Numbered from the stretch's first letter, positions 1 through 13,493 are shown. The stretch: DNA of 64,000 nt from Candidatus Bathyarchaeota archaeon (GCA_005881615.1 VBBR01000032.1:3183-67182); one strand, 5' to 3'. A program made the numbers and translations. The notes: generated by a model not told the origin, from the sequence alone.

Positions 1-302
1 CCCGCTGCCTTGAAGTGCCGAAGGGCGTCTTCCAAGAGCAGCTTCGCGATGCCGTGATTCCTGTGAGCCTTCGCCACGGCAATGTAGTACACATAGCCGA
101 CGTTCGACTCTATCGTCTTCAGCATGACCAGCCCGACAGGTTTGCCTAGCAAGATTGCGGCTCTGACCACATCTACGTTTCGGAGGGTCCCTTTCGAATG
201 TCTCAGGTACCATCCTTCAAAGCTCTCGTTAAGTATCCATTCCAGGCCCGCCCTTTTCTCGACGGGAATGTCGACGATTACGGCTCCCTCCTGTTCTGTC
301 AT
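1..302 (-). CDS. GNAT-family N-acetyltransferase, N-terminal part only (gene runs off the left edge of the window)
   Basis: Reverse-strand translation from ATG at 302..300: MTEQEGAVIVDIPVEKRAGLEWILNESFEGWYLRHSKGTLRNVDVVRAAILLGKPVGLVMLKTIESNVGYVYYIAVAKAHRNHGIAKLLLEDAL. Typical GNAT motif A (R-x-x-G-I-A-x-x-LL). Its ATG overlaps the TGA of the upstream amidohydrolase (ATGA), suggesting coupling. Not in the ORF track because no stop falls in the window. Confidence 0.55.
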   Translation of the reverse strand, partial: MTEQEGAVIVDIPVEKRAGLEWILNESFEGWYLRHSKGTLRNVDVVRAAILLGKPVGLVMLKTIESNVGYVYYIAVAKAHRNHGIAKLLLEDALRHFKAA

Positions 303-1126
303 AGACGGAACACTCGCTCCGCATTGTGCGACAAGATTTTTTCCTTGTCGCGTTCATCCACTTCCAATCTCCTCACCAGCGCCAACGCGTCGGAGTGTTT
401 GGTGATAGGATAATCTGTTCCGAAGATGACTTTCTCGGCGTTGCCTGCGAAATAGATGGCTTCGCTAATCTTTCTGGCGAGCCACGCCGCATACTTCTCC
501 GCGTATGCAACATCGCCTGTGATCAATCCGGAGATGTCGGCGTAGACGTTAGGGTGTTTGTAGGTTAGCTCCGCGGCATCCTCGAACCATGGATTGCCAA
601 AGTGGCAGAGGACTATGGTCAGCTCCTCTCTCCTGTTCGCTAGTCGGTCCAGGGTTAGCGGGTGCGAGCGGGCGAGGTCTCCAGTGCTAAACGCAGTGTC
701 TCCGGTATGAAAGAGCACTGGGAGTCTCTTCGACTCGGCATAATCATATAGTTCGTCGAAAACCGGACTGTCTGCCGATGCCTTCACGTAACCCAGCCTG
801 ACTTTGAAGGCCTTAACCTCCCCCGGGTTCTCCTCAGCGAGCTTGAGTGCAGCCTTCACCTCCTTCATTGAGGGTTCTACCGTAACTACCGGCGCGAGAA
901 TTCCGTCGCTCCTCCTGCACAGCCTGATGACTTGCTCGTTGGGAAGAGCGGTGGTTCCTTGTAGAGGCGGACTGAGGAGCAGCCCATTTTTGACCTTGCA
1001 TCTTCGCATGGTGCCCAGTAGTTCGTTCATATTGTAGCTGAGACCGTTTATCCGCGCGAATCTGATGAGGGCGTCATCTCTACGCTCGGACAGGTGGACA
1101 TGGGCGTCGATTATTTTTGCGGCCAT
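299..1126 (-). CDS. metal-dependent amidohydrolase (amidohydrolase-2 / TIM-barrel hydrolase family)
   Basis: 275-aa ORF. N-terminus KIIDAHVHL (His-x-His metal motif) and C-terminal D-x-H...TDYP are typical of amidohydrolase_2-type TIM-barrel hydrolases. Confidence 0.7.
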   Translation of the reverse strand: MAAKIIDAHVHLSERRDDALIRFARINGLSYNMNELLGTMRRCKVKNGLLLSPPLQGTTALPNEQVIRLCRRSDGILAPVVTVEPSMKEVKAALKLAEENPGEVKAFKVRLGYVKASADSPVFDELYDYAESKRLPVLFHTGDTAFSTGDLARSHPLTLDRLANRREELTIVLCHFGNPWFEDAAELTYKHPNVYADISGLITGDVAYAEKYAAWLARKISEAIYFAGNAEKVIFGTDYPITKHSDALALVRRLEVDERDKEKILSHNAERVFRL

Positions 1127-1258
1127 TTCTCACACTCGCCTTCTTCCAGCGGACCCCGCTGTAGGACAGATCAATCCTGCCGGAGACTCCCACTAATACC
1201 TCCTTGCGTAAGCTGGGCAGAAAGCAGATATGGAAAAGCATACCGTTAGCCACTCACC

Positions 1259-1822
1259 ATGGGCGAACTGGTCGTCAAAGAACTAACGCCGTCTCTGAGA
1301 GACGACTTCCTGCTGTTCTTCGATAGTGTGGCGTTCGCGGACAATCCTGACTGGTCTGACTGTTACTGTTCCCTCTATCATTTCGCAAACAAGGGAAAGG
1401 CTGAGAGTCGCCGCCAGGCCTCAAGCCACATCGAGGAGGAAAGGATCCACGGATTCCTTGCCTACGACAATGGAAAACCCGTTGGCTGGTGTAACGCCGC
1501 CAACCGCAACAGCTACCCCACGCTCCACTGGCTGATGGGTCCTGGTCCCGACAAGTCAGAGCGAGTTGGTGCAATCGTCTGCTTCGTAATAGCCGCTTCA
1601 CATCGCAACCAAGGAGTCGCCTCCCACCTACTGGACGCCGCGTGCAGAAAATTTTCACAAAAAGGATTAGAATTCGCTGAAGCCTACCCGGTGAAGGAGT
1701 CAAAGTCATCTGCTTACAACTTTCCAGGCCCGCTGTCAATGTACCTCAAGAATGGTTTCACCCAACATCGCGACGCCGATTGGTATCTGGTAGTGCGAAA
1801 GCGACTCGAAACAACATCCTGA
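1259..1822 (+). CDS. GNAT-family acetyltransferase
   Basis: 187 aa. Central segment VGWCNA...IVCFVIAASHRNQGVASHLLDAACRKF matches the GNAT acetyl-CoA binding motif (R/Q-x-x-G-x-A/G). Confidence 0.55.
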   Translation: MGELVVKELTPSLRDDFLLFFDSVAFADNPDWSDCYCSLYHFANKGKAESRRQASSHIEEERIHGFLAYDNGKPVGWCNAANRNSYPTLHWLMGPGPDKSERVGAIVCFVIAASHRNQGVASHLLDAACRKFSQKGLEFAEAYPVKESKSSAYNFPGPLSMYLKNGFTQHRDADWYLVVRKRLETTS

Positions 1823-1897
1823 GGCAGACCGCCCCCTTTCTAACAATAGGCAGCTCCAGCAACGACCTGGGATGCTGGAAATCCAACAGTAATGTGA

Positions 1898-1912
1898 TGG
1901 GCCCGCCCGGAT
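1898..1912 (+). repeat. 15-nt direct copy (tgggcccgcccggat) of the 3' end of tRNA(CAU) at 10159-10274; putative att-core remnant
   Basis: Exact match to the tRNA acceptor/T-stem 3' strand at 10162-10176, in the same orientation. Lies in a non-coding 540-bp gap. Confidence 0.5.
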
Positions 1913-2359
1913 ACTACCGGCTAGCCTAGTGCGCCAGGAGAACTGTTCCTTTTTTTTGTGGCGCAGAACCTTTTGCACAACAGAATCTTCCTGTCGTTAG
2001 TTGTCATAAACGACAGGGCCTTTTTCAGCGTTACTAGTCGGCGAACTAGTCGATCAAGGAATGGTCCCTGCCCCGGTGTTTCTTGATGGACCCTGTTGTT
2101 GACGAAGTATCTTTCTAGTGTTCAGAGTTATCATAATCGAACCGGTCGGCCCTTGCGAAATCGCCCAGCCTACAGTCGCGTAGCTTGCAGGAATGGCTTC
2201 CAAAGCTCCCTACCGTCACTACCGGCATAGCGAGGTGAATCAATTCCTGGAATACACTAAGGTAGACTCGAGACATACGGAGCGCGCTTTGGCAATCCGC
2301 CGCCGGTCGTATATTGGCTAGTCTTATCTACGCATCTCTGGCGAAGTTATTCCCGAAAA

Positions 2360-4432
2360 ATGGTTATGATTTCTAAGTTAATGCGCGTACGACTGAATAC
2401 ACCAAGACTAAATCAACAACTGGTCACGAAGGCATTCTTGGTAATCGCAATCCTATCAGTCTCGACTCTCTCGGCCCTGCCCTCTGTGGCAGGTCAAACG
2501 ATCACGGGATCTCTGACCTTCCAAAGAGGTGAGAACAATGCCTTCACAGGTCTGATCGATGCAACCCACGGGTTTGCATACTTTGCGACCGATACTCAGC
2601 CAGGACAAATCGTGAAGGTTAGACTCTCCGACTTCACTAAAGTCAGCACTTTGGTGCTGAATCCACATGAGGATTTCCTGTCAGCTGGAGTCATTGACCC
2701 AGGCAACGACTTCGCATACTTCGGGACCTACAACCTTGGATCTCCAAATGCAAGCATAATCAAAGTCAGGCTATCCGACCTGACACGTGTAGGCGCGATT
2801 CAGATCAGTTCAAGAAACAATAGATTCTTCACGACCGCCGTGATCGACAGCGCGAACGGTTTCGCGTACTTCGGAAGTCTCCGAGGGGGCGTTATTGACA
2901 AGATCAGACTGTCAGACTTCACGCTGGTTGCTACGCTGAACCTTCCGAATGGCTTTGGGCTCTTCGGGTCAGCTATCGACACTACCGGGTTCGCATACTT
3001 CTCCACAGGCACCGGAACCGGTTACATCTTTAAGATCAGACTCTCGAACTTCACCTTGGCGAAGACGCTCACGGTGGGGGAACCGTTGGGATCAACCCCG
3101 CTAATCGACCCGACCACGGGGCTCTCTTACTGGCCAACCGACACTAACCCAGGGTCAATACTGCGAGTGAAAGTATCAGACCTCACCATCACCGGGAACA
3201 TGACTCTGAATGCGGGAGAATTATCCCCGAATTCCGGCGTGATCGATCCTTCCGAAGGTTTCGCCTATTTCGGAACACAAGGGACCCCATCGGAGATTGT
3301 TAAGATCAACATTGCAACCTTCAAACTGGCAAACACGTTGAAACTCGCGCCCTACGAGTCCCTGCTCTTCTTGAGCGCAGCAGGGGTGATTCAGAGTGAA
3401 ACGAGGGGTGGTAGCTTCGGCTACTTCGCGACCTACACCTCTCCGAGCTTCATTGTAAAGGTCAAACTGTCCGACATGAGCCGCGCTGGTACAATGACTC
3501 TCAAGCAGGGAGAGCAAGCCTTCGACAATTCGATAATCGACACGGCAGCAGGATTCGTATACTTCGGGAGCGATTCAGTGTTTGGGACGGGATCGGGTAC
3601 TGGCGCAATATCTAGAATAAGGACCTCCGATTTCACGGATGCTGGAACACTGCTGCTCAACCCTGGCGAAGGCCCCCTATGCTCGGCGGTCATAGATACG
3701 ACTAATGGGTTTGCCTACTTCGGAACGAGCACCTTTCCGGCAAAGATCATCAAAGTCAGACTCTCGGACTTCAGTCGCGTCGGGGTTCTCACGCTCGCCA
3801 CGGGCGAGGACCTTGCTTGTACGGGCGTAATTGATCCTCTGAACGGTTTCGCGTACTTTGCTACCCAAGACGACCCCGCAATTGTCCTCAAGGTCAGACT
3901 CTCCGATTTCTCTCTAGTTGGAACAGGCACCTTGGGCGCCTTCGAAGGTATCCCCATCAGCTCTATCATAGACGTTCAGCACGGTTTCGCCTATTTCGGA
4001 ACACTAAGTTTCCCTGGAGTCATTGATATGGTGAGACTCTCCGACCTTACGGAGGTAGCGTCGCTGACAATCGACCAGGATCAACCGGCCGCCGCCGCGA
4101 TTGACACTTTAGGAGGCTTTGCCTACTTCGGAACCTTTGAGGGCGTAGTGAAGCTTCGGCTGTCTGATTTCAGCGAGAACATGTCGATGACGCTGAATGG
4201 GCTTCAATCCTCCGTCGGCTCCGTCGTCCTCGACTTGTCTCTCGGTTTCGGCTACTTTGGAGGTGTCGGTTTCGTCGCGAAGATTCAGCTCTCGACCTTG
4301 AACGAGGTCGGCTCGACGATGACAGCGAGTCCGAACGATTTTCTCTTTAGTGCCAGCATCGATCCTGCGGCTGGAACAGCATACTTCGGCGTCCTATCGG
4401 ACCCAGGCAAAGTCTACAGAGTTAGCCTCTAA
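2360..4432 (+). CDS. secreted tandem-repeat protein (about 12 repeats of roughly 55 aa; beta-propeller-like)
   Basis: 690-aa ORF with an N-terminal hydrophobic signal/anchor (AFLVIAILSVSTLSALPSVAG). The unit 'IDxxxGFAYFGTxxxPGxIxKVRLSDFTxVxTLxL' recurs about every 55-57 residues along the whole length. The true start may be an internal Met (MRVRLNTPRL). Confidence 0.7.
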   Translation: MVMISKLMRVRLNTPRLNQQLVTKAFLVIAILSVSTLSALPSVAGQTITGSLTFQRGENNAFTGLIDATHGFAYFATDTQPGQIVKVRLSDFTKVSTLVLNPHEDFLSAGVIDPGNDFAYFGTYNLGSPNASIIKVRLSDLTRVGAIQISSRNNRFFTTAVIDSANGFAYFGSLRGGVIDKIRLSDFTLVATLNLPNGFGLFGSAIDTTGFAYFSTGTGTGYIFKIRLSNFTLAKTLTVGEPLGSTPLIDPTTGLSYWPTDTNPGSILRVKVSDLTITGNMTLNAGELSPNSGVIDPSEGFAYFGTQGTPSEIVKINIATFKLANTLKLAPYESLLFLSAAGVIQSETRGGSFGYFATYTSPSFIVKVKLSDMSRAGTMTLKQGEQAFDNSIIDTAAGFVYFGSDSVFGTGSGTGAISRIRTSDFTDAGTLLLNPGEGPLCSAVIDTTNGFAYFGTSTFPAKIIKVRLSDFSRVGVLTLATGEDLACTGVIDPLNGFAYFATQDDPAIVLKVRLSDFSLVGTGTLGAFEGIPISSIIDVQHGFAYFGTLSFPGVIDMVRLSDLTEVASLTIDQDQPAAAAIDTLGGFAYFGTFEGVVKLRLSDFSENMSMTLNGLQSSVGSVVLDLSLGFGYFGGVGFVAKIQLSTLNEVGSTMTASPNDFLFSASIDPAAGTAYFGVLSDPGKVYRVSL

Positions 4433-4649
4433 ACACGCTGCGAAGCGGCTCCAACCTTTCCCCTTTTTTCTCGTCGAAGAGTTCCTACGTCGATCTGGTG
4501 CTCCTAACTGCTTTGTGACGTGGTCATCTCGTTTTGTTCCCGCTTCTGTTGCTTCAACCCAATCCCTGAAACAAGGATGCCCTTTGTCGACAAGCTTGGA
4601 GACCAACGCAAAAGCAGCCATCCCCGGAATGTCCACTAGGCTAAACTGC

Positions 4650-4667
4650 TGGGCCCGCCCGGATTCG
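4650..4667 (+). repeat. 18-nt direct copy (tgggcccgcccggattcg) of the tRNA(CAU) 3' end; putative att-core remnant
   Basis: Matches 10162-10179 (tRNA 3' strand) 18/18 and is followed by 'ct' as at 10141-10149. Same orientation as the copy at 1898 and as the intact tRNA. Confidence 0.5.
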
Positions 4668-4844
4668 CTTGAAAACTACAGCGAATCCATTCTCTGTGTT
4701 CGAAACCCTTCTAGATTCTCCTAAATTCAGATGCTTCTTGGACACCAGTCTGTACAGGTATATGCTAGAGTTGATTTTCGACGACCTCGCCGTGCCTCAG
4801 GGTCGCAGTTTATGGAAACTGTCGAAGTCGAACTGTCGCTGACA

Positions 4845-5192
4845 TTAGGCCTCCGCTATCCCCCAGATTTGCCCACCTGGTGCCTGGAAGTAGAAGCGGT
4901 TGCTAATTGGATGTTTCACTTGGGACAAACCCGCCGCCAGAACCTTCTTTTTCAGAGCAGACGGATCCTCAGTCTTGACCTCCAGCCAGGCCCCCCGCCA
5001 AGGTTGCTTCCCGTCGAGTGCGTCCTTGGCAAACTCGACGCTCAACGAAGCCCCGTTGGGAAATACGAAGACAAGCATTGACCCTGGCAACGCCACAAGC
5101 TCGCAACCAAAGATATCGGTGAAAAAACTGGTCAACCTTTCTTTATTCTCGAGTCTTGCAAAAGTATGCACACGATTCGTCATGCCTATCAT
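4845..5192 (-). CDS. VOC (glyoxalase/bleomycin-resistance/dioxygenase) family protein
   Basis: 115 aa, single betaalphabetabetabeta-like module. C-terminal FYFQAPGGQIWGI is typical of glyoxalase-fold proteins. Weak. Confidence 0.4.
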   Translation of the reverse strand: MIGMTNRVHTFARLENKERLTSFFTDIFGCELVALPGSMLVFVFPNGASLSVEFAKDALDGKQPWRGAWLEVKTEDPSALKKKVLAAGLSQVKHPISNRFYFQAPGGQIWGIAEA

Positions 5193-5247
5193 GATACTTT
5201 CCTTTTCTGGATGAGTTGGCCCAGGTGGGGTTAAAAAATTAGTGTGT

Positions 5248-5460
5248 CTAGCCGAAACTAGGGATGATGTCTCTGGCGAACTGTTGCATGGAGTCTAAGC
5301 AGTTATTTTGCCGGAACCCGATCACAAAGTAATGGCAGCCTCTCTCCTCCGCCTCTTTTATCCTGGTAGTGCAGGCTTTTTCGTCGTACTTCGGGCTGAA
5401 GTCCGTGTCAGCGAACGAGACTTTGCTGGCCCGGTTGTGCTGTTTTGCTTCCTGTGACAC
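5248..5460 (-). pseudogene. C-terminal fragment of a luciferase-like monooxygenase (LLM / F420-dependent oxidoreductase) gene
   Basis: The 70-aa ORF ends ...RIKEAEERGCHYFVIGFRQNNCLDSMQQFARDIIPSF, matching the conserved LLM C-terminus (...FAeeVmPaF). No upstream LLM body is present; the ORF abuts the next gene. Confidence 0.4.
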
Positions 5461-5605
5461 GACCGTTTAACGAATTCGGCCCATGTTACCAAGAAAGATC
5501 TCCTCAAACGGTACGCATTTATTGTCCCTGCAGGTTTTATTTGAACATGAAAACGGGACCTGTGCCCGTCCAAATCCCACTCCCGGTGATCTTCAGGTCG
5601 CTCAG

Positions 5606-6016
5606 ATGATGACGAGGAAAACCGGGTCTCTGCAACATATTGAAATCAACGTGACAAACCTGGAGACGTCGAAAGGCTTCTACGATGGCTTCCTTACTTG
5701 GATAGGCTATAATCGCGTAATGGACGAGAAGGACATAGCAGGATGGAGCAACGGTGATATTCAGATTTTTCTGGTCAACTGCGAACCCCACTATCGCAGT
5801 GCAGAGTTCCACCGAAAACATGTAGGCCTAAACCACGTTGCGTTTAGAGCTAGCTCCAGGGAAGATGTTGATAGGTTCTTCAGCGAGTTCCTATCCACAA
5901 GGAGAATCACAGTTCTGTATGGTGGACCGAAAGCGTATCCTGAGTACAGCCTGACGTACTACTCGGTGTACTTCGAGGACCCTGACAGAATAAAACTCGA
6001 ATTCATGCATGCGTGA
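5606..6016 (+). CDS. VOC/glyoxalase-family protein
   Basis: The ORF frame (5483..6016) contains HIEINVTNLETSKGFYDGFLTWIGY...HVGLNHVAFRASSREDVDRFF...YFEDPDRIKLEFMH, a typical VOC fold with the metal-binding H/E pattern. Start placed at the internal Met doublet (MMTRKTG); the upstream 41 codons look non-coding. Confidence 0.6.
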   Translation: MMTRKTGSLQHIEINVTNLETSKGFYDGFLTWIGYNRVMDEKDIAGWSNGDIQIFLVNCEPHYRSAEFHRKHVGLNHVAFRASSREDVDRFFSEFLSTRRITVLYGGPKAYPEYSLTYYSVYFEDPDRIKLEFMHA

Positions 6017-6172
6017 TTCGACGTGCGACCAGTCAGAATCTCCGATCTTCAGAGACATTATGAAAGACGGGCGCCGAAGATGGCTTAGAGTCGGGGTCGA
6101 TGATCATGCATGTTCAGCCTGCTTCAAGTCCCAATGCGTAACGGGCCCATTCTGACTGACCATTACTCATCT

Positions 6173-6709
6173 CTAATGGCATCTCTTCACTTGGATCGAG
6201 ACCTGGTCTCTCATTGAGACAGCTCGATCCGTATCCACGGCTGGAGGGTTTCTCAATCGTGGAGACCCCAAGAGGTGGCGGTCCTTCTGGCTCAAAGCAC
6301 AGTTGCTCCGATCCTCCATCGTCAAAACGGATGGTCCTCCGCGTTGTTTGTGCATGAGAAGTAGCGTGTGACCGTCGGGGTCCTCAAAGTAAATCCATCG
6401 ATGCCTCTCGTTGTCCGATCTCCATTCTTCAATCTCGCCTTTCAGGTTCGCCCCCGCAGCCTTCAGTTCCCGCACGGCGCTGTCCAAGTCTTCTACCAGA
6501 AGCCCCACTGCTGGACAGCGTCCGTCCTGTCTTCTCGCGAGACGGGTATCCCTTGCAAGAATTTCAAGATTTGTTGTCTCATCGATCGCGTAATAGGCGT
6601 AAGCAGGCGTATCCTCAACAAGGTTTAGCCCAAGAACCTCAGCATAAAATCGCCGCGTCTCTGGACGATCACTTACGAGACCCAACCAACCGATCCCAGA
6701 GACTTTCAT
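6173..6709 (-). CDS. VOC/glyoxalase-family protein
   Basis: N-terminus MKVSGIGWLGLVSDRPETRRFYAEVLGL...WIYFEDPDGHTLLLMH is a glyoxalase-like module. Its stop sits 4 bp inside the next gene (6706), suggesting an operon. Confidence 0.65.
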   Translation of the reverse strand: MKVSGIGWLGLVSDRPETRRFYAEVLGLNLVEDTPAYAYYAIDETTNLEILARDTRLARRQDGRCPAVGLLVEDLDSAVRELKAAGANLKGEIEEWRSDNERHRWIYFEDPDGHTLLLMHKQRGGPSVLTMEDRSNCALSQKDRHLLGSPRLRNPPAVDTDRAVSMRDQVSIQVKRCH

Positions 6710-7170
6710 GGATAGTTACCGATGTGCCACTGCCATTTCTTGCCGTCCAGTCGGACAAAGTCTTCGAAAGCAGACGGTCCCTTTCGCTGGTACTCACACC
6801 AAGACGCGATTTTTCCGTCACGAACTTTGACGATGACAACACCATGGTCAGCAGAGGATTTGCCTTTCAAGCCAAATGAGAACTCGCCAGCACCAACTTG
6901 GTTTGACTCGTCAAACGAAAGATGGTGAAAGACCATGAAGGTCCCAGGCGTAAGGGCCCCAAAGTAAGAACGCAGCTGTTCTTGTCCATGATAAAACTGA
7001 ACATCCGGTGGCTCAAAGTAAACCGCGTCGCTTGTGAAACACTCCAGCGCAGATTCGGTATCCTGTCGACTCCAGGCCTGAGCAAGCTTTGTCATCAAGG
7101 CATGGTATTCCTGAGGACCCAACACTAACATGCCGACACCCCGAATCGCGTCAGGTCTCAGTAAATACAT
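6706..7170 (-). CDS. SnoaL-like / NTF2-fold protein
   Basis: 154 aa; ...LAQAWSRQDTESALECFTSDAVYFEPP...DGKIASWCEY matches the SnoaL-like (NTF2-like) pattern. Confidence 0.5.
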   Translation of the reverse strand: MYLLRPDAIRGVGMLVLGPQEYHALMTKLAQAWSRQDTESALECFTSDAVYFEPPDVQFYHGQEQLRSYFGALTPGTFMVFHHLSFDESNQVGAGEFSFGLKGKSSADHGVVIVKVRDGKIASWCEYQRKGPSAFEDFVRLDGKKWQWHIGNYP

Positions 7171-7502
7171 TTGTCTCCAAGCAACACTCTGAGTCGCTTC
7201 TCGAAACCACTCGTAACACCGCGGTGGTGAGAGGGGAGGGGGTCCGAGTATCCAAACATGTGTCGAGCCATGGGTTGAGCGAGTAACACGCTGTCGTCTG
7301 GTCGAATTGATGGTGGGTGACGTCCCAAGAAAAAAAGCCGCAGCTGCGAATCAGCCTTTGATGGGCAAAACCACTACAAGGGTGCCTGAAAATCAAGATT
7401 CAAAAGTCATGAGACACCGCCAGAGAGACATCGCGCAAAATCCGTGTCGCTCAATGAGGCTAGTCTATTAGACGATTCCAAACCAGGCTCGGCAGATTAC
7501 TA

Positions 7503-8342
7503 TTGGAGTCCGGATTGCTTCAAGTCGACGACGGCAGGCTATACTACGAGGTCAACGGTCGCGGCGACCCGATCGTCCTCATACACGCAGGCTTCCTAGA
7601 CAACAGAATGTGGGACGAACAATTCCAATTATTCGCCCAGCACTACAAGGTCATCCGTTACGATGTAAGAGGCTACGGCAAGTCCGACGAGCCAAAAACC
7701 AGTTTCTCCGACTATAAGGACCTCCACAGGCTACTCGCCCATCTAAGCGTCAAAACCGTCCACATAGTCGGCGTCTCAAACGGTGGAAGAATCGCCCTTG
7801 ACTTCGCCGTGGAATACCCTGAGATGATTCACTCTCTGATTCTGGTCGGAACGGGGGTTAGAGGCCGCGGGGTCTCGGGGCCAGAAGAGGAAAAGTTCTG
7901 GGGCGAGTTCGAGACGCAGATGAAACTCCAAGAAGAGGCTGTCAAAGGAGACAGGCTGGCCGAGGCTACAGAAATAGATGTGGACACTTGGGCCACTGCT
8001 CAGACACCCGCTTCACAAAAGCGCATTCTCGAAATAGCCCTTGAAAACTCCCACGTTCAAAAAGACGAACCTGGAAAATTCCAAGTGTCACCCGAGCCAG
8101 CTGCTTACAAGAGGCTATCCGAAATACGCGCCCCGACTCTGGTGATAATTGGAGACCGAGACGTTCGAGGGATGCGGTATATCGCCGATGACGTTCACTC
8201 GAAAATCCAAGGCTCCAAGAAACTGGTGGTTCAGGGAGCAGACCATATAGTCAACATGTCCAAGCCAAAGGAATTCAACAAGATGGTTTTAGAATTCTTG
8301 GAAAGCAGTGCAGATCCTCCGCAAGATGTGGTCAGAGGATAA
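7503..8342 (+). CDS. alpha/beta-fold hydrolase
   Basis: 279 aa; YYEVNGRGDPIVLIHAGFLDNRMW (oxyanion-hole HGG-like region) and GVSNGG nucleophile-elbow (G-x-S-x-G) variant. Confidence 0.7.
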   Translation: MESGLLQVDDGRLYYEVNGRGDPIVLIHAGFLDNRMWDEQFQLFAQHYKVIRYDVRGYGKSDEPKTSFSDYKDLHRLLAHLSVKTVHIVGVSNGGRIALDFAVEYPEMIHSLILVGTGVRGRGVSGPEEEKFWGEFETQMKLQEEAVKGDRLAEATEIDVDTWATAQTPASQKRILEIALENSHVQKDEPGKFQVSPEPAAYKRLSEIRAPTLVIIGDRDVRGMRYIADDVHSKIQGSKKLVVQGADHIVNMSKPKEFNKMVLEFLESSADPPQDVVRG

Positions 8343-8410
8343 AGCGAGCTTCAACGGCAAGTTCTACCGGATAAAAGATGCCTACTGTAACCCCGAGACA
8401 GGTCGTTCTG
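8308..8410 (+). pseudogene. short N-terminal-like fragment of an LLM/F420-dependent oxidoreductase
   Basis: MWSEDKASFNGKFYRIKDAYCNPE resembles the conserved LLM motif (W.ed.vsf.Gkfy.l.da...P). Fused out of frame to the 3' end of the hydrolase gene, with no remaining LLM body. Confidence 0.3.
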
Positions 8411-8562
8411 TCTTATACTGTTTGCTCTTGGCAATCCGGCACGAACCAACTATCCAGTACCGAGGGAGGGGAGAGGCAGGTCTCACGTTGGAACTATTCT
8501 CGGCCGACTCCAGCAGAATATTAATCACAGGATGTTGGAACGTCCGTTGCAAGCGGTAAGAA

Positions 8563-9309
8563 ATGTCAGCTAGTCGAGAGGAGACTTTCGCACGGATGTC
8601 CTCCCGTGACTGGCCCACGGAGGTTCATACGCTTGATGATCTAGAGGGCCAAGTAGCGCTGGTCACAGGTGCATCTCGGGGCATAGGCGCAGCTGTTGCT
8701 GCGGAATTGGACGACCTCGGAGCAATTGTATATGGTGGAATGCGAAGGCCAAAGGCTGTAAACGGCCTGAAGCCAATCGTCCTCGATGTTACTCAAGAAG
8801 CCATAATCTCAGCCGCAATCGACCAAATCCAACACGAAGCGGGCCGCCTGGACATCCTAGTCAACAACGCGGGCGTAGGCGTGTCGGACGGGGACTTGGC
8901 GGTGATCTCTACCGAGGAGATAAGAGAGGTGCTGGAGACAAACCTCCTAGGGCCCATGCTTGTGAGCAAGCATGCTCTCCCCATTCTACTGAAGCGGCGC
9001 GGCGGGAGGATCGTGAACGTTTCCAGCCTCGTCGGAGCTGTGACGGGGGGCATGGAAGGTAATTACCCCGCTTATCGGATCTCCAAGACTGGCCTAAATG
9101 GGCTCACGGTCTATCTTCACGGGGAATATGGGCCACAGGGCCTTATCGCGAATTCCGTCTGTCCCGGACATACTAGGACCGACCTAGGCGGGCCAGACGC
9201 CGAACGTAGCGTGGAAGAAGGAGCTGAAACTCCAGTATGGCTCGCGACCTTTGCTCCTGGAGGTCCCGGGGGGCTCTTCTGGCGCGACAAGAAGGTTATT
9301 CCTTGGTGA
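8563..9309 (+). CDS. short-chain dehydrogenase/reductase (SDR)
   Basis: VALVTGASRGIGAAVAAEL (TGxxxGIG Rossmann motif), NNAGV, and YRISKTGLNGLT (catalytic Y-x-x-x-K). Confidence 0.8.
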   Translation: MSASREETFARMSSRDWPTEVHTLDDLEGQVALVTGASRGIGAAVAAELDDLGAIVYGGMRRPKAVNGLKPIVLDVTQEAIISAAIDQIQHEAGRLDILVNNAGVGVSDGDLAVISTEEIREVLETNLLGPMLVSKHALPILLKRRGGRIVNVSSLVGAVTGGMEGNYPAYRISKTGLNGLTVYLHGEYGPQGLIANSVCPGHTRTDLGGPDAERSVEEGAETPVWLATFAPGGPGGLFWRDKKVIPW

Positions 9310-9447
9310 CATTTCGACCGGACTGCACCTACCTGGCCACTTACCAACCTAGGGTCCGCTTCATCAGAGGTATGATGGAGAGCATTCGTAGCCTAAGGGA
9401 CAGACCGCGTAACCACTCGCTTCTAGGAAACCCTCGAGAATATCTTG

Positions 9448-10158
9448 GCGGGGTCTATGGCTATTAGGTCAGGGTTTGGGCCAGATCTTTATGGCCTGAT
9501 CGGCAAGCGTCTGGGCTCTTTGAGCTATGGACTCCTGATTCCATGTCTGATACTTGGCAACTTGCTTGTTCAGCTCAAGATTGCTGGTCGAGTAGGTTTG
9601 CTTCTTCTCCGAGAATGGCCTGTTTGGACAACTCAGGGTTGTATGCTGATAGGGTAAGGTTGCCTAGCGTGTGGAGCCATGCTTGATGAACTTCTTCATA
9701 ATTCGCGCCGAGATCCTTGACCCAGGGGGTCGTTCAAGGTTTGAGGCATGATGTGCTCGACCTGCGTGTTCTCTAGAAGAGCGGGTTCTTTGTGATGATA
9801 GCTCCCTTCCAGGGAAGAGAGAATGTTCCAAGCACCCAGTCCCATGTATAGTTGGGCTGTCTTGAGACCCTAAGTGAAGGCGTTGTCATCAGGCCAGCCG
9901 TAATGCGTCAACCCTTGGACGAGTGATCCCAGGACATTTCCTTTGTCGACAGATTTCGAAATTGCTGGAAAGTATCTGTTCAAGGATCTTGCAGAATAGT
10001 TGAGGACGAGCCTCCGTACCAGAAAGGACTCGATGAGCTCGAGCCCTGTCGCAAAATCATTCATTGGCAAAGCGCCCTCTGAGTGTATTTCGTAGAGTTT
10101 CAGGAGCAAAGGATAGGCTGTGTTTACATCCCACCAAAAAGGATTCGCTGAATTTTTT
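9448..10158 (-). pseudogene. remnant of a GmrSD/DUF1524-type (His-Me finger, type IV restriction-like) gene, 5'-truncated at the tRNA and carrying at least three frameshifts
   Basis: Minus-strand frames give ...FATGLELIESFLVRRLV...GWPDDNAFT* / ...LENTQVEHIMPQTLNDP / WVKDLGANYEEVHQAWLHTLGNLTLSAYNPELSKQAILGEEANLLDQQS* / LNKQVAKYQTWNQESIAQRAQTLADQAIKIWPKP*. The (V/I)EHI-x-PQ ... lGNLtL...N pattern is the DUF1524 HNH-like core. The listed ORF 9870..10298 is an artefact fusing the first fragment to the antisense of the tRNA. Confidence 0.45.
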
Positions 10159-10274
10159 TGGTGGGCCCGCCCGGATTCGAACCGGGGACCGTCAGGTTTC
10201 CCGAACTTGGGGCTATGAGCCTGCCGCTCTTTCAGTTCTTCAACCTGAAGAAAACCTAGCTGAGCTACGGGCCC
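10159..10274 (-). tRNA. tRNA(CAU) (elongator Met or Ile2) with two introns (D-loop and canonical 37/38)
   Basis: Reverse complement: GGGCCCG-TA-GCTC-AGCTAGGT[TTTCTTCAGGTTGAAGAACTGAA]A-GAGC-G-GCAGG-CTCATA[GCCCCAAGTTCGGGAA]A-CCTGA-CGGTC-CCCGG-TTCGAAT-CCGGG-CGGGCCC-A-CCA. The 7-bp acceptor, T-arm, CAU anticodon and encoded CCA are all in place; both bracketed inserts can form hairpins (BHB-like). Confidence 0.7.
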
Positions 10275-10611
10275 TCCAAGAAAGCCGCTCGCACACACCT
10301 AATTCTTAATGGTTTAGCGCAGACTCAATCCTGTAACGACCTTAATTTGCGACATGTAATAGCTACTCTACGGTATCGGTAAGGTACGTTGTAGCGGTTC
10401 TTGGGACTTTTCTGATTTTGTTTGGGCTCGTTGCACGTTCTACGGGCCTGATGAAGAGTCGAAGAGACTCAAACTATGGTCTGGCGACAGTCTGGTTCAA
10501 TCCCGTTTCTCTCGGAGCGATATTCATACTGGACGGGTTTTTCGTCTTGTAGATGATGCTGCCTATCTTTTAATAAACGGGGCTTGTCGGGTTGTCGGTT
10601 GCCGCCGGCTG

Positions 10612-10760
10612 TATGCGGGCCGCCGTTCCCTCAGAGGTTTGGGGGCGCGAGCTCAGTGGTAGAGCAGCGGACTCGGCTTGTGGCTGAGGCTGAAGCTGTT
10701 AAAGTGGAAGGTCCACTGTAGCAACCCGTTGGTCACAGGTTCGAACCCTGTCGGCGGCGC
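10612..10760 (+). tRNA. tRNA with multiple non-canonical introns; best guess tRNA-Thr(UGU)
   Basis: Perfect 7-bp acceptor GCCGCCG (10612-18) / CGGCGGC (10750-56) followed by G-CCA. Canonical D-arm GCTC-AGTGGTA-GAGC, T-arm ACAGG-TTCGAAC-CCTGT, and a clean anticodon arm CTCGG-CTTGTGG-CTGAG (anticodon TGT). About 70 extra nucleotides are spread between acceptor and D-stem, before the anticodon stem, and in the variable region. Exact exon boundaries unresolved by eye. Confidence 0.5.
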
Positions 10761-11479
10761 CAACTTCGAGAAACCTAGCATTTGGCTGGGGCCACCAGAA
10801 CGACCTGAGACTTGGGTTTGCCCTTGCTCAGGCGTTCTTAAGTGATCCCTTCGTGGTTACAACATTTCTAACTGTCCGGGCCGCTACTTCTGAGCCCATA
10901 TCATCGGCTGTGAGAACGAAAGAGTTCCTTGAGTTCCATGGCACTGTCAACTCTTCGGTTGCTGTTTCTTGTTCTTCGGTCGTCTCTAACTGTTTTGTTC
11001 GAGGAGTGACCGATTATTCGTTAGGGGCGTTCGTCAGATGAGCCCTGTTACGCTTGGGGGAGGTGACTGGTTGGTTGGCCACTGTAAAATCCCTGCCTTG
11101 CAACGGGCCAAGCTACCACGCTACGGGCGTGAGGGGGCGGTTGAGGTTCGACCGTTCCCTGCCGAAAAGAGGCTCGGTGTCCCTGAGGCGCAAGGGCTCT
11201 CAGGTGAAGCAGTGAAGGGGAACCCGATGACGACGGTAATCCTCGGAGTCGATGAGAACAAGTCTAGTCTTCGAACAACCGAAGACTTGACAGAACCAGT
11301 TCCAGCAAACGCTAAGGGAGCTAGAAAGCCAGGTTCGTAAGCTCCTGAAGGAAGCAGCGGAAAGCGGTCCTTCCGAGAGAACCCGGGATCTTACTGGGAG
11401 AGTCTACGATCTGGCCGAACGAGCCAACCAAATTCGGCCCCAAGAAGCTAGGAACCAGTCTACTACCAACCAGTCAGTC

Positions 11480-11881
11480 TTGGAAAAGCTTCCCGAAGAG
11501 TTCAATGAGGATTTTGGTAGATTCAAGGCATTGGTAACCTTCGTTGAACCGGTCCGAAAGCAGCACTATAACGCCACGGGTCACAATATAGGAAGAACCT
11601 ATGGTTCCTTTGGAACCAGTGAACTCTCGCCAGGACACCACCACGGCAAGTCCGTCATCAGTACCCTAGAAATCCGTTGCGACGCCTGCGGTAACGAATC
11701 CCCCCAGTCAGAAAGAAGAGATTACCCAATTCACGTTCTGCTTCACGACCGAGAACAATGGGAAGTTTGTACCGGTCAATCCGGCTGTGAATGCCAAGGC
11801 TACGAGGGCAAGGGCGTTCGAATTGGCGTCAACCTTTCTCCTGAGAGAGTAGGGAAAAGGGAAAGAGCCCAAGCTCTCTGA
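11480..11881 (+). CDS. hypothetical Cys-rich protein (frame is open from 11291 with no canonical start before the TTG at 11480)
   Basis: C-terminal CDACGN...CTGQSGCECQGY suggests a metal-binding module. The upstream in-frame segment (QNQFQQTLRELESQVRKLLKEAAESG...) looks coiled-coil-like. ORF 11038..11340 in another frame may be part of the same gene disrupted by a frameshift. Confidence 0.3.
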   Translation: MEKLPEEFNEDFGRFKALVTFVEPVRKQHYNATGHNIGRTYGSFGTSELSPGHHHGKSVISTLEIRCDACGNESPQSERRDYPIHVLLHDREQWEVCTGQSGCECQGYEGKGVRIGVNLSPERVGKRERAQAL

Positions 11882-12155
11882 GTAGTTTTCGCATACCGCT
11901 CCACGTATAAGTCGAACTCTCGGTTTGCTGGCAAGTCACTCACTGATCATTTTTCGAACGTTCTTCCGAAAAATAGGCACGCTCTTCTCAAGAAGCGGTT
12001 TGGGAAGATTCATAATCCTTGTCGCCGTTGTGACCTAGGAAATCGCTATCCATGCAAATATGTATCAAAAGATAGAAATCGGATTGATGATTTGTCAATC
12101 CTTATTATTCGCGGCGACGAGTATCGACGATAAGGACGCTTTGACAAATGTAGAT

Positions 12156-13493
12156 ATGCGCCTCAGGGCTGATGCTGAACGACTTTCTCAGTCTTGGCTA
12201 TCAGACCGCTGGAATGGAATCCGTCGGCTTTACTCGGCCGAGGACGTCTGCAAGCTCCGGGGGACCGTCCATCCAGAGTGCACCTTGGCTCGACTCGGTG
12301 CGGAAAAGTTTGAGCGCCTCTTAAGGGACGAGGCGTACATTCCCACTCTCGGCGCTCTGACTGGGGTACAAGCTGTCCAGATGGTCCAGGCTGGGCTCAA
12401 GGCGATCTACATGAGCGGCTGGCAGGTAGCCGCAGACGCTAACCTTTCAGGCCAAACTTACCCTGACCAAAGTCTGTACCCGGCCAACAGTGTTCCGAAT
12501 CTAGTGAAGAGGATCAATCAGGCATTCCAGAGAGCCGACCAGATACAATTCGTGAGTGGCCAAGGGAGAATCGACTGGCTCGCACCGATCATTGCCGACG
12601 CAGAGGCAGGGTTCGGAGGCCCCCTCAACGCCTTCGAACTGATGAAAATGATGATAGAGGCTGGAGCGGCAGGAGTGCACTTCGAAGACCAGCTCGCTTC
12701 AGAGAAGAAATGCGGCCACCTAGGCGGAAAGGTCCTAGTTCCCACTCACCAGTTCATCAAGACTCTGATCGCGGCCCGACTTGCATCCGACATAATGGGC
12801 GTCCCAACATATCTCATCGCGCGAACAGATGCAATGGGAGCCAAACTCTTGTCGAGCGACTCCGATCCGAGAGACCTGCCTTACATGACCGGTGAGAGAA
12901 CCGCGGAGGGTTTCTACAGAATCAAGCCCGGCATAGAGGCTGCCATTGCGCGAGGTATGAGCTACGCGCCTTACGCTGACATCCTGTGGTGTGAGACTTC
13001 CACTCCGGACCTTGAGGAGGCGAGAAGGTTCGCAGATGCTGTTCACAGAGTGTTCCCTGGAAAGCTGCTAGCATACAATTGCTCGCCATCATTCAATTGG
13101 GAGAAACATCTGGATCCGGAGAGCATTCGGCGTTTTCAGAGAGAACTGGGCATGATGGGTTACAAGTTCCAGTTCGTCACATTGGCCGGTTTCCACAGTC
13201 TCTCAGTATCCATGTTCGAGCTGGCGAAACAGTACGCTGTTGAAGGAATGGCGGCATATGTTCGCGTCCAGAGGAAAGAGTTCGAAGCCGAACCTGCAGG
13301 CTACACCGCGGTGAAGCACCAGGCGTTTGTGGGAACAGAATACTTCGACGAGGTCGCAAACGTAATCTCGAGCGGAATGTCTTCGACCACAGCCATGAGC
13401 GAATCTACTGAAGCGGTCCAGTTCAAAGAACAATCCGTTCTGGTACCGCCTCCAGTTTCAAGCACCAAATCTGACCGAGACCGGAACCAGTAG
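12156..13493 (+). CDS. aceA: isocitrate lyase
   Basis: ...[13 protein letters not shown]...[11 protein letters not shown]...[20 protein letters not shown] carries the ICL signature K-K-C-G-H. Start placed at the Met of [14 protein letters not shown], where homology to ICL N-termini begins (ORF-track start 12060). Confidence 0.85.

Follow-up and report, generated by a model that had tools for sequence, protein, structure and literature searches.

Positions 1898 to 10179 of a 64,000-nucleotide stretch from Candidatus Bathyarchaeota archaeon (GCA_005881615.1, VBBR01000032.1:3183-67182; hereafter the window, with positions counted from its first nucleotide) are very probably a tandem array of two decayed integrative elements, X and Y, at the 3' end of a tRNA(CAU) gene, which arose by gene capture of the Sulfolobus spindle-shaped virus (SSV) type. 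A first-pass annotation made from the sequence alone had read the region as integration into this tRNA gene, and that reading is supported by a break in synteny at 1823-10158, by homologies of the repeat flanks and by an integrase in a third element, Z, found in sister contigs. Relatives were fetched with the isocitrate lyase gene (12060-13493) as the anchor, which yielded 80 genome loci and 80 metagenome loci (referred to by L numbers) from soil Bathyarchaeia, including Angelo-meadow-type metagenome-assembled genomes (MAGs) such as VBBP01000045, and these were compared by DNA and by translation. The parts of the array and its borders are as follows.

1259..1822, plus strand: GNAT acetyltransferase gene, conserved and bordering the array on its outer side (86% nucleotide and 89% amino acid identity to L002)
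1898..1912, plus strand: distal att copy c1, 15/15 against the tRNA end, 76 nt past the GNAT stop codon
1913..4649, plus strand: element X, 2.7 kb, with a single gene
4650..4667, plus strand: middle att copy c2, 18/18 against the tRNA end, with left flank ctaggctaaactg
4650..4772, plus strand: putative int(C), the C-terminal remnant of a split tyrosine integrase; the left end of Z in L174 has the identical sequence
4668..10158, plus strand: element Y, 5.5 kb, its first 105 nt replaced by a Z-type tail
10133..10161, plus strand: tRNA-proximal trailer T1, ccaaaaaggattcgctgaatttttttgg, which holds the inverted-repeat arm GGATTCGCTG
10162..10179, plus strand: proximal att core TGGGCCCGCCCGGATTCG, covering the discriminator, the 3' acceptor strand, the 3' T-stem and part of the T-loop
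10159..10274, minus strand: tRNA(CAU) gene, Met or Ile2, with two introns and an encoded CCA; the integration target (attB side)

The tRNA(CAU) gene matches Rfam model RF00005 over its full length (1-71) with 44.9 bits at 10162-10274 on the minus strand, and since CCA is encoded we place the gene end at 10159. Extra sequence is found in the D-loop region (about 25 nt) and in the anticodon loop (a 16-nt insert); ARAGORN did not detect this tRNA in the window. The gene is kept in relatives. The 15-mer TGGGCCCGCCCGGAT occurs in the window in three exact copies, all on the plus strand, at 1898-1912, 4650-4664 and 10162-10176, with the match between c2 and the tRNA end extending to 18 nt (4650-4667, ending in TCG). 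With up to 2 mismatches allowed, 0.21 occurrences would be expected in the window, and a count of 3 was reached by none of 100 shuffled sequences; the triple occurrence is not due to chance. Both c1 and c2 lie 3' of the tRNA in direct orientation, in intergenic DNA and with mutually unrelated flanks, so that an intact tRNA gene at one boundary is accompanied downstream by direct repeats of its 3' part. The first-pass annotation had correctly described the copies at 1898 and 4650 as same-orientation repeats of the tRNA end in non-coding DNA, and it had named similar frequency elsewhere as the sign of a chance match. No such frequency was seen in the window; in related loci totalling about 1 Mb, the core, searched with up to 2 mismatches, was confined almost entirely to this tRNA and to direct copies downstream of it.

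Comparison with relatives places variable DNA between the GNAT gene and the tRNA. The GNAT gene (1199-1812), also present in L110 and L122, and everything rightward from the tRNA 3' end are conserved among relatives, and genes for CdvA and Vps4 lie nearby; these two genes, the intron architecture of tRNA(CAU) and the best-matching loci together assign the window to a lineage of soil Bathyarchaeia. In DNA and translated comparison, no relative has a counterpart of 1823-10158 at this locus; conserved synteny of the whole region in relatives lacking the repeats, which would have spoken against integration, was thus not observed. GNAT and the tRNA are separated by about 150 nt in L122, by about 1 kb in L110, by 2.6 kb in L002 and by 8.3 kb here, and the L002 interval holds different genes and no repeat. 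L122, which belongs to another species, provides the empty site that the first-pass annotation proposed to look for, while within the same population an empty site is seen for Z only (L177 and L182 versus L174 and L184). The sequence directly downstream of tRNA(CAU) differs in almost every relative, and when the core was searched for with up to 2 mismatches allowed, at least 8 relatives proved to have inserts of their own that end in a distal copy of this tRNA end. They include the following; L142 also has a distal-type copy of the core.

L110: 0.95 kb, distal copy 25 nt past the GNAT stop codon
L005/L120: 1.06 kb (2126-3204 in L005), one 278-aa protein, common to L004 and L005
L127: 2 kb (216-2193), a 375-aa repeat protein with no Pfam match
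L004: 2.7 kb, with the 278-aa protein also found in L005
L099: 5.7 kb (533-6287), a 1506-aa Kelch-repeat protein
L104: 6.3 kb (563-6864), an 857-aa GH5-domain protein and a GNAT

In this soil Bathyarchaeia archaeon, the tRNA(CAU) gene appears to be a landing site used repeatedly, where stacked elements left about 8 kb of captured accessory genes, and the array still varies between cells of the population. The relatives' inserts encode mostly single large secreted or surface proteins. In the L099 insert, a 276-aa open reading frame (ORF) has an N-terminal part that looks ribbon-helix-helix-like by eye and has no Pfam match.

The flanks of the repeats indicate how the elements were stacked. The trailer beside the distal copy of L005 is the same as the trailer beside the intact tRNA in L008 and L121, so that these two loci represent the empty state of the L005 insert. 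In the window, the left flank of c2 agrees with the tRNA trailer of L122 in 23 of the 30 nt before the core, including 13/13 directly adjacent to it, and the left flank of c1 resembles two sequences, the one next to the tRNA in L089 and the one beside the distal copy in L110. Since successive integrations into a tRNA push the old 3' end and its trailer outward, these flanks point to a tandem arrangement; of the two possibilities first raised, tandem or nested, the nested one is not supported. Several unrelated distal copies carry CTCA in place of TTCG to the right of CCCGGA. This change would alter the invariant C56 of the tRNA, which indicates that this part of the repeat comes from the element, as in an attP x attB exchange, and is not a replicated piece of the target. 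A degenerate distal copy candidate in L122, CGGGCCCCCCACGGG, was too weak to count.

Evidence for the recombinase comes from sister contigs. A search with the GmrSD-family remnant of Y led to a 142-aa ORF overlapping the tRNA on 11 contigs, whose identity to the window is 98-99.4%. One of them, L174, at 99%, has four cores, with the additional 1.77-kb element Z lying between c2 and a new copy, c2' (TGGGCCTGCCCGGAT), and Z is also found in L175, L176 and L184. Z carries an integrase pseudogene that matches PF00589 with 32.1 bits (cut-off 27.1; E 1.2e-7; profile positions 3-104 of 172) and the phrog_1 integrase with E 3.4e-13. Its best relative of solved structure is XerA of P. abyssi (4a8e, E 2e-9), and the only PDB matches at E <=0.01 are XerA (4a8e, 5hxy) and, weakly, IntI4. 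Both the Box I region and a C-terminal Tyr motif align to XerA.

The int gene of Z runs toward c2' and enters it; at the core, which corresponds to profile position 104 of 172, the Pfam match breaks off. At the other end of Z, after c2, the same frame reads WARPDSLENYSESILCVRNPSRFS, a stop and then IQMLLGHQSVQVYARV (WARPDS...LLGHQSVQVY), of which LLGH..Y was aligned by HMMER to the catalytic-Tyr segment of XerA, a match that is not significant alone. Because the int frame continues in this way across the core into the tail at the opposite end, attP would lie inside the int gene, and the tRNA-derived core would encode part of the integrase itself (W-A-R-P-D-S). The continuity is interrupted by a stop codon just before the core, a pseudogene lesion; it is thus from reconstruction of the pseudogene that the recombination site falls inside the int ORF, with the N-terminal part, int(N), and int(C) at opposite ends. 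No match to the SSV1 integrase was found and no sequence relationship to the SSV1 and SSV2 integrases, so the Z integrase would be SSV-type by architecture, not by clade.

In the window itself, what remains of a tyrosine recombinase gene beside an att site is a tail of 41 codons, which by tblastn is 95% identical to residues 237-277 of the Z integrase; the sister contigs have the Z pseudogene. No integrase was seen when every gap between genes in 1790-10320 was scanned in six frames with Pfam and PHROGs, nor when the ORF translations of 21-64 kb were looked over by eye, and the tail was recognised only after the sister contig with Z had been found. The search for integrase remnants by tBLASTn that the first-pass annotation proposed is therefore answered by 4650-4772. 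Its statement that no integrase survives holds for function and fails for remnants, which comprise this tail and probably also some 26 nt at the tRNA that would derive from int(N). An origin of the right junction of c2 by microhomology (GGATTCG in the T-loop and in the trailer) was considered and dropped, since the sequence is integrase coding. The L005 family of inserts also starts with a related, WARPDSL-type tail.

The contigs of this population fall into three states, and many assemblies break at c2, as would be expected from a polymorphic site.

State A (L177, L182, L186): X-c2-Y, with Y's own tail
State B (L174, L184; L175 and L176 show the Z-c2'-Y part): X-c2-Z-c2'-Y
State C (the window, L179, L183): X-c2-(Z tail)-Y

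Positions 4600-4772 of the window are identical to c2 plus the left end of Z in L174 and have about 24 differences from Y's own left end, while from 4773 on the window is identical to the Y of L174. The difference between states A and B is site-specific gain or loss of Z at the core. State C is best read as the result of Z being deleted by recombination between the homologous tails of about 120 nt, in which case the window would derive from a three-element state. The array has thus changed on the time scale of about 1% sequence divergence. It is decayed, since every integrase copy seen is a pseudogene. The first-pass annotation had called it an old, decaying island, of which the decay stands; the island is not simply old, since the presence or absence of Z and the recombinant junction segregate among contigs that are 98-99% identical. 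The same C-to-T change (TGGGCCTGCCCGGAT) is seen in c1 of some contigs and in c2' beside Z (L174, positions 258 and 4782 in window orientation; L184, L185, L186, L189). This may be coincidental, reflect gene conversion among the att copies or mark the copies that took part in recombination.

Element X has one gene and Y several. All copies of the same-species locus that we retrieved contain X, and likewise Y, whose block is present at 98-99% identity in L164 and L174-L183. Their genes are listed here.

2360-4432, plus strand: gene of X for a 690-aa protein with an N-terminal hydrophobic segment and repeats of about 40 aa, without a Pfam family
4845-5192, minus strand: weak VOC-like ORF
5483-6016, plus strand: VOC protein
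6173-6709, minus strand: VOC protein
6706-7170, minus strand: SnoaL
7503-8342, plus strand: alpha/beta hydrolase
8563-9309, plus strand: SDR
9472..10132, minus strand: GmrSD-family pseudogene (Pfam PF07510, E 1.4e-18, profile positions 1-137 of 138)

This cargo agrees with that named at the outset (a repeat protein, VOC proteins, SnoaL, hydrolase, SDR and a GmrSD-like fragment), save for a proposed LLM fragment (5251-5466, minus strand), which has no family match. An exact-protein look-up of the 690-aa protein returned nothing. A homologue of 58% identity, at 7088-9530 in L170 and also seen in L171 and L172, is located 240 nt downstream of the 3' end of tRNA-Leu(CAG) and is followed by only an 8-9-nt possible repeat of that tRNA end, CCGCACCA. 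It may be another tRNA-linked cassette.

X and Y each have a pair of perfect 10-bp inverted repeats, in symmetric positions directly inward of the direct repeats. Those of X are TAGCCTAGTG at 1922-1931 and CACTAGGCTA at 4634-4643 (1 of 300 shuffles was as good), and those of Y are CAGCGAATCC at 4679-4688 and GGATTCGCTG at 10141-10150 (0/300). The repeats of Y fall within sequence that codes for integrase, each at a distance of 11 nt from the 18-nt core, and are candidate recombinase binding sites.

At the tRNA-proximal edge of Y, the GmrSD pseudogene has 2 frameshifts and 1 in-frame stop; its C-terminal GmrSD_C domain is complete, its N-terminal DUF262 half is gone and the gene is cut off about 26 nt from the tRNA end. 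Full-length homologues have 400+ aa and a PF03235 domain. No close full-length copy was found; full-length homologues are <40% identical, and one 163-aa fragment is 66% identical over 43% of the query. The truncation would be a deletion scar where int(N) had lain. The 26-nt trailer T1 runs in frame into the core (..KGFAEFFWWARPDS) and resembles the end of the Z int(N) in nucleotide sequence, so T1 is probably the last remnant of Y's int(N), the rest of which would have been deleted along with the front of the GmrSD gene. A T1-like trailer follows the tRNA in L008 and L121, and a diverged version in the distant relatives L011 and L102/L104. Within 10130-10172, the 3' acceptor end of the tRNA, extended by CCA and an A-run (RNA strand CCCACCAAAAA), can pair by complementarity with the trailer end TTTTTGGTGGG in an 11-bp helix around the GGATTCGCTG motif, which could be a terminator, a processing structure or a by-product of the att arms.

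Composition does not set the cargo apart. GC content, GC content at third codon positions, codon usage and tetranucleotides of X and Y are within the range of core genes and of same-size windows, with composition distances from such windows of +1.4 standard deviations for X and +0.9 for Y. The deviation that the first-pass annotation suggested looking for is absent, and the cargo matches the core genome. Homologues of the alpha/beta hydrolase (74-77% identical) and of the 690-aa protein (55-69%) are found in related soil Bathyarchaeia in other contexts, and no integrase was found near those homologues (55-79% identical). Because the nearest homologues are in related Bathyarchaeia, the captured genes come from within the lineage, and such an origin leaves no compositional signal, which makes the composition test uninformative. 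The hydrolase gene by itself (7501-8297) is 79.5% identical in nucleotides to a gene in L165-L168, with the similarity ending at the gene borders; there it is accompanied by a GNAT, a 660-aa beta-propeller protein and purine-biosynthesis genes.

The order of events, which we infer from these observations, would be as follows. Each integration would be an exchange within the 15-18 nt core common to the attP of the element and the T-arm/acceptor end of the tRNA, whereby the tRNA is rebuilt from element sequence and the prior tRNA end is displaced outward with its trailer; c1 and c2 would be such displaced former tRNA ends. The recombinase, at least in the Y/Z family, would be a tyrosine integrase with attP in its own gene (SSV-type, or "suicidal"). 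Integration would split int, leaving the N-terminal part by the tRNA-proximal core and a short C-terminal tail by the distal core, so that the element could no longer excise alone and its cargo would be captured. Y would later have lost int(N) together with the front half of the neighbouring GmrSD gene. Z, which holds the integrase and little else, would have been present between c2 and Y and been removed via recombination of the Z and Y int(C) tails, leaving the Z tail fused to Y at about 4769-4773.

Several observations weigh against this account. The composition of the cargo is host-like and its metabolic genes are ordinary. Box II (HxxR/KxxR) is not recognisable in the Z integrase, which has D-S-L-E-N at that position, and the basis for assigning int(C) is the continuous frame plus a short motif, the second domain being not significant. 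No intact integrase was found anywhere, and in each of the three contigs the Z gene is broken by stops and frameshifts. Pfam and PHROGs scans found no recombinase in X, whose element type we assign with reserve, and none of the 8 inserts of relatives encodes one. Neither a free attP nor a circular form was found; scans of viral contigs with exact attP-type junction patterns and with the Z integrase gave nothing, and with the 18-mer the only hits were unrelated, high-GC loci of tRNAs or tRNA fragments. Among the contigs retrieved there is no same-species empty site for X or Y. T1 could also be a native trailer instead of element-derived sequence, given the similar trailers in distant relatives.

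The lack of recombinases in X, Y and the relatives' inserts is what an integron-like platform would predict, in which the tRNA end receives integrase-less cassettes that carry an attP-like site of about 50-60 bp, partly palindromic, and are moved by a recombinase acting in trans, and are not decayed autonomous elements. Many inserts are indeed single-gene cassettes for large secreted repeat proteins, the symmetric 10-bp inverted repeats around the core in X and Y would fit such a site, cassette content varies between close relatives, and Z, being essentially integrase-only, could act as the helper. Y, however, has seven genes in mixed orientation and its own int(C)/int(N) scars, which argues that it was once autonomous, and the L005 family likewise opens with a WARPDSL-type tail; moreover, no intact trans-acting integrase is known and no array longer than three was seen. 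An integron is defined by an IntI gene with adjacent attI and by cassettes that each end in attC; here no integrase flanks the tRNA, and IntI4 is only a weak PDB match of the Z integrase. We therefore regard this explanation as unlikely. A looser version, in which tRNA(CAU), perhaps along with other tRNAs, is a standing cassette-exchange site analogous to an integron, with Z-like integrase-only elements supplying the self-splitting recombinase, would have that recombinase insert, swap and strand integrase-less cassettes for surface-repeat proteins and small-molecule metabolism; we offer this as speculation that is somewhat less improbable, but still doubtful.

Ordinary chromosomal reshuffling has a different appeal. 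Were this merely a variable segment rearranged by homologous or illegitimate recombination, with the tRNA-like pieces being leftovers of duplicated tRNA genes, the host-like composition and phylogenetic affinity of the cargo would follow, the regions left of GNAT and right of a second tRNA gene vary too, and the deletion of Z in the window is itself homologous, not site-specific. But the fragments always begin at the same point of the same tRNA and are direct, downstream and at insert boundaries in many genomes, and one insert, Z, has an integrase spanning the fragment. With Z, this explanation is already largely refuted, and we consider it very unlikely. Family-2 casposons target tRNA 3' ends with 14-15-bp duplications, and the inverted repeats found on the inner side of both direct repeats in X and in Y could accordingly be terminal inverted repeats, with the 15-18-nt repeats as target-site duplications of transposon-like inserts such as non-autonomous casposon derivatives. 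This least probable alternative is rejected, as no insert has Cas1 (the casposase), PolB or a transposase, the identity block is 14, 15 or 18 nt instead of a fixed 14-15-bp duplication wholly from the target, the same non-tRNA substitutions recur in unrelated distal copies, and a tyrosine integrase reads through the repeat in Z.

The surroundings of the captured array are variable as well. Relative to L002, where GSDH directly precedes GNAT, this species has about 8.5 kb of extra DNA between the two genes (window 1-1258 and leftward; 1464-9868 in L182-L189), which contains an ABC ATPase, unknown proteins, two GNATs and an amidohydrolase, so that the GNAT gene is bordered by variable DNA on both sides.

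299-1126, minus strand: amidohydrolase

Beyond tRNA(CAU), and divergent from it, lies a second tRNA gene (about 10601/10620-10765, plus strand) with at least 2 introns, one of about 51 nt at the anticodon loop and probably one between the acceptor and D arms. ARAGORN gave no result for it, and its Rfam match, a partial one over model positions 9-63 with 29 bits, is only just at the threshold. Identity to relatives is 96% over the block 10564-10790, against 80-88% in their coding flanks. Downstream of the second tRNA (10766-12059) the sequence varies again: 10939-11297 is absent in L004, L087-L089, L097, L105, L106 and L161, L002 lacks about 10871-11951, and L086 (99% isocitrate lyase identity) has a different 2.6-kb segment there, with both tRNAs missing at this position. 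No repeat of the 3' end of the second tRNA was found.

Bathyarchaeia are an abundant uncultured class of archaea whose mobile elements are, to our knowledge, little explored; those described are mostly viruses. If the array is what we take it to be, mesophilic Bathyarchaeia of soil have self-partitioning integrases at work and undergo the gene capture that follows from them. The locus supplies a concrete att core and target tRNA, and its turnover among near-identical genomes makes the process traceable in existing metagenome time and depth series. Such capture would also account for the integrase-free "islets" of metabolic and surface-protein genes beside tRNA genes in these MAGs, where standard tRNA finders overlook the multi-intron tRNAs that anchor such arrays.

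Among known systems, bacterial tRNA-linked islands and cis-mobilizable elements (CIMEs, integrase-less remnants between att sites that accrete together with a functional element) are characterized by tandem accretion at the tRNA 3' end, distal direct repeats, and loss of the recombination module with retention of att sites. The array shares these traits, but the integrases of bacteria are not known to be split when they integrate. For archaeal chromosomes, gene capture was reportedly described by She et al. in 2001. SSV-type integrases, which are archaea-specific and have the recombination site inside their own gene, underlie this process, with SSV1/SSV2, pXQ1, pTN3 and pT26-2 as examples (PMC8371274). 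The array resembles these elements in having attP, by the reconstruction of Z, in the int ORF, an int gene split at both ends by integration at a tRNA 3' end, trapped and decaying genes flanked by att sites, and several elements that reuse one tRNA. It differs in its mesophilic soil Bathyarchaeia host and in the position of the split, which in SSV1 is near the N-terminus and here would be near the C-terminal end of the catalytic domain, leaving an int(C) of about 45 codons. Unlike the SSV1 integrase, the Z protein is nearest XerA by sequence and lacks a recognisable Box II, and the core of 15-18 nt is shorter than the 29-69 bp of Crenarchaeota att cores (PMC6563490).

A closer parallel in host and scale is offered by the cryptic elements of Thaumarchaeota, whose att sites have a median of 17 bp and whose arrays arise by site reuse; one of them, NitEve-E3, has a split SSV1-like integrase (Krupovic et al. 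2019, PMC6563490). As in the window, these are elements of mesophilic TACK archaea with tRNA targets, short att sites and one-site arrays, and they are small (from 2.6 kb) and can be without viral or plasmid hallmark genes (PMC6563490). They were defined by an intact integrase (PMC6563490), whereas the elements in the window have lost theirs and their cargo is purely metabolic or surface-related; presence and absence states within one population, which lay outside that study, are seen here. Family-2 casposons are comparable in their tRNA 3' target, short direct repeats, inverted repeats at the ends and tandem arrays, which have been reported for casposons (PMC6563490), and they differ from the array in that here there is no casposase or PolB, the repeat is variable in length and partly element-derived, and the sister element encodes a tyrosine integrase. 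Within SSV-type and tRNA-linked capture, what is new here is the occurrence in soil Bathyarchaeia, the short core from the T-arm and acceptor and the split near the C-terminus of the integrase.

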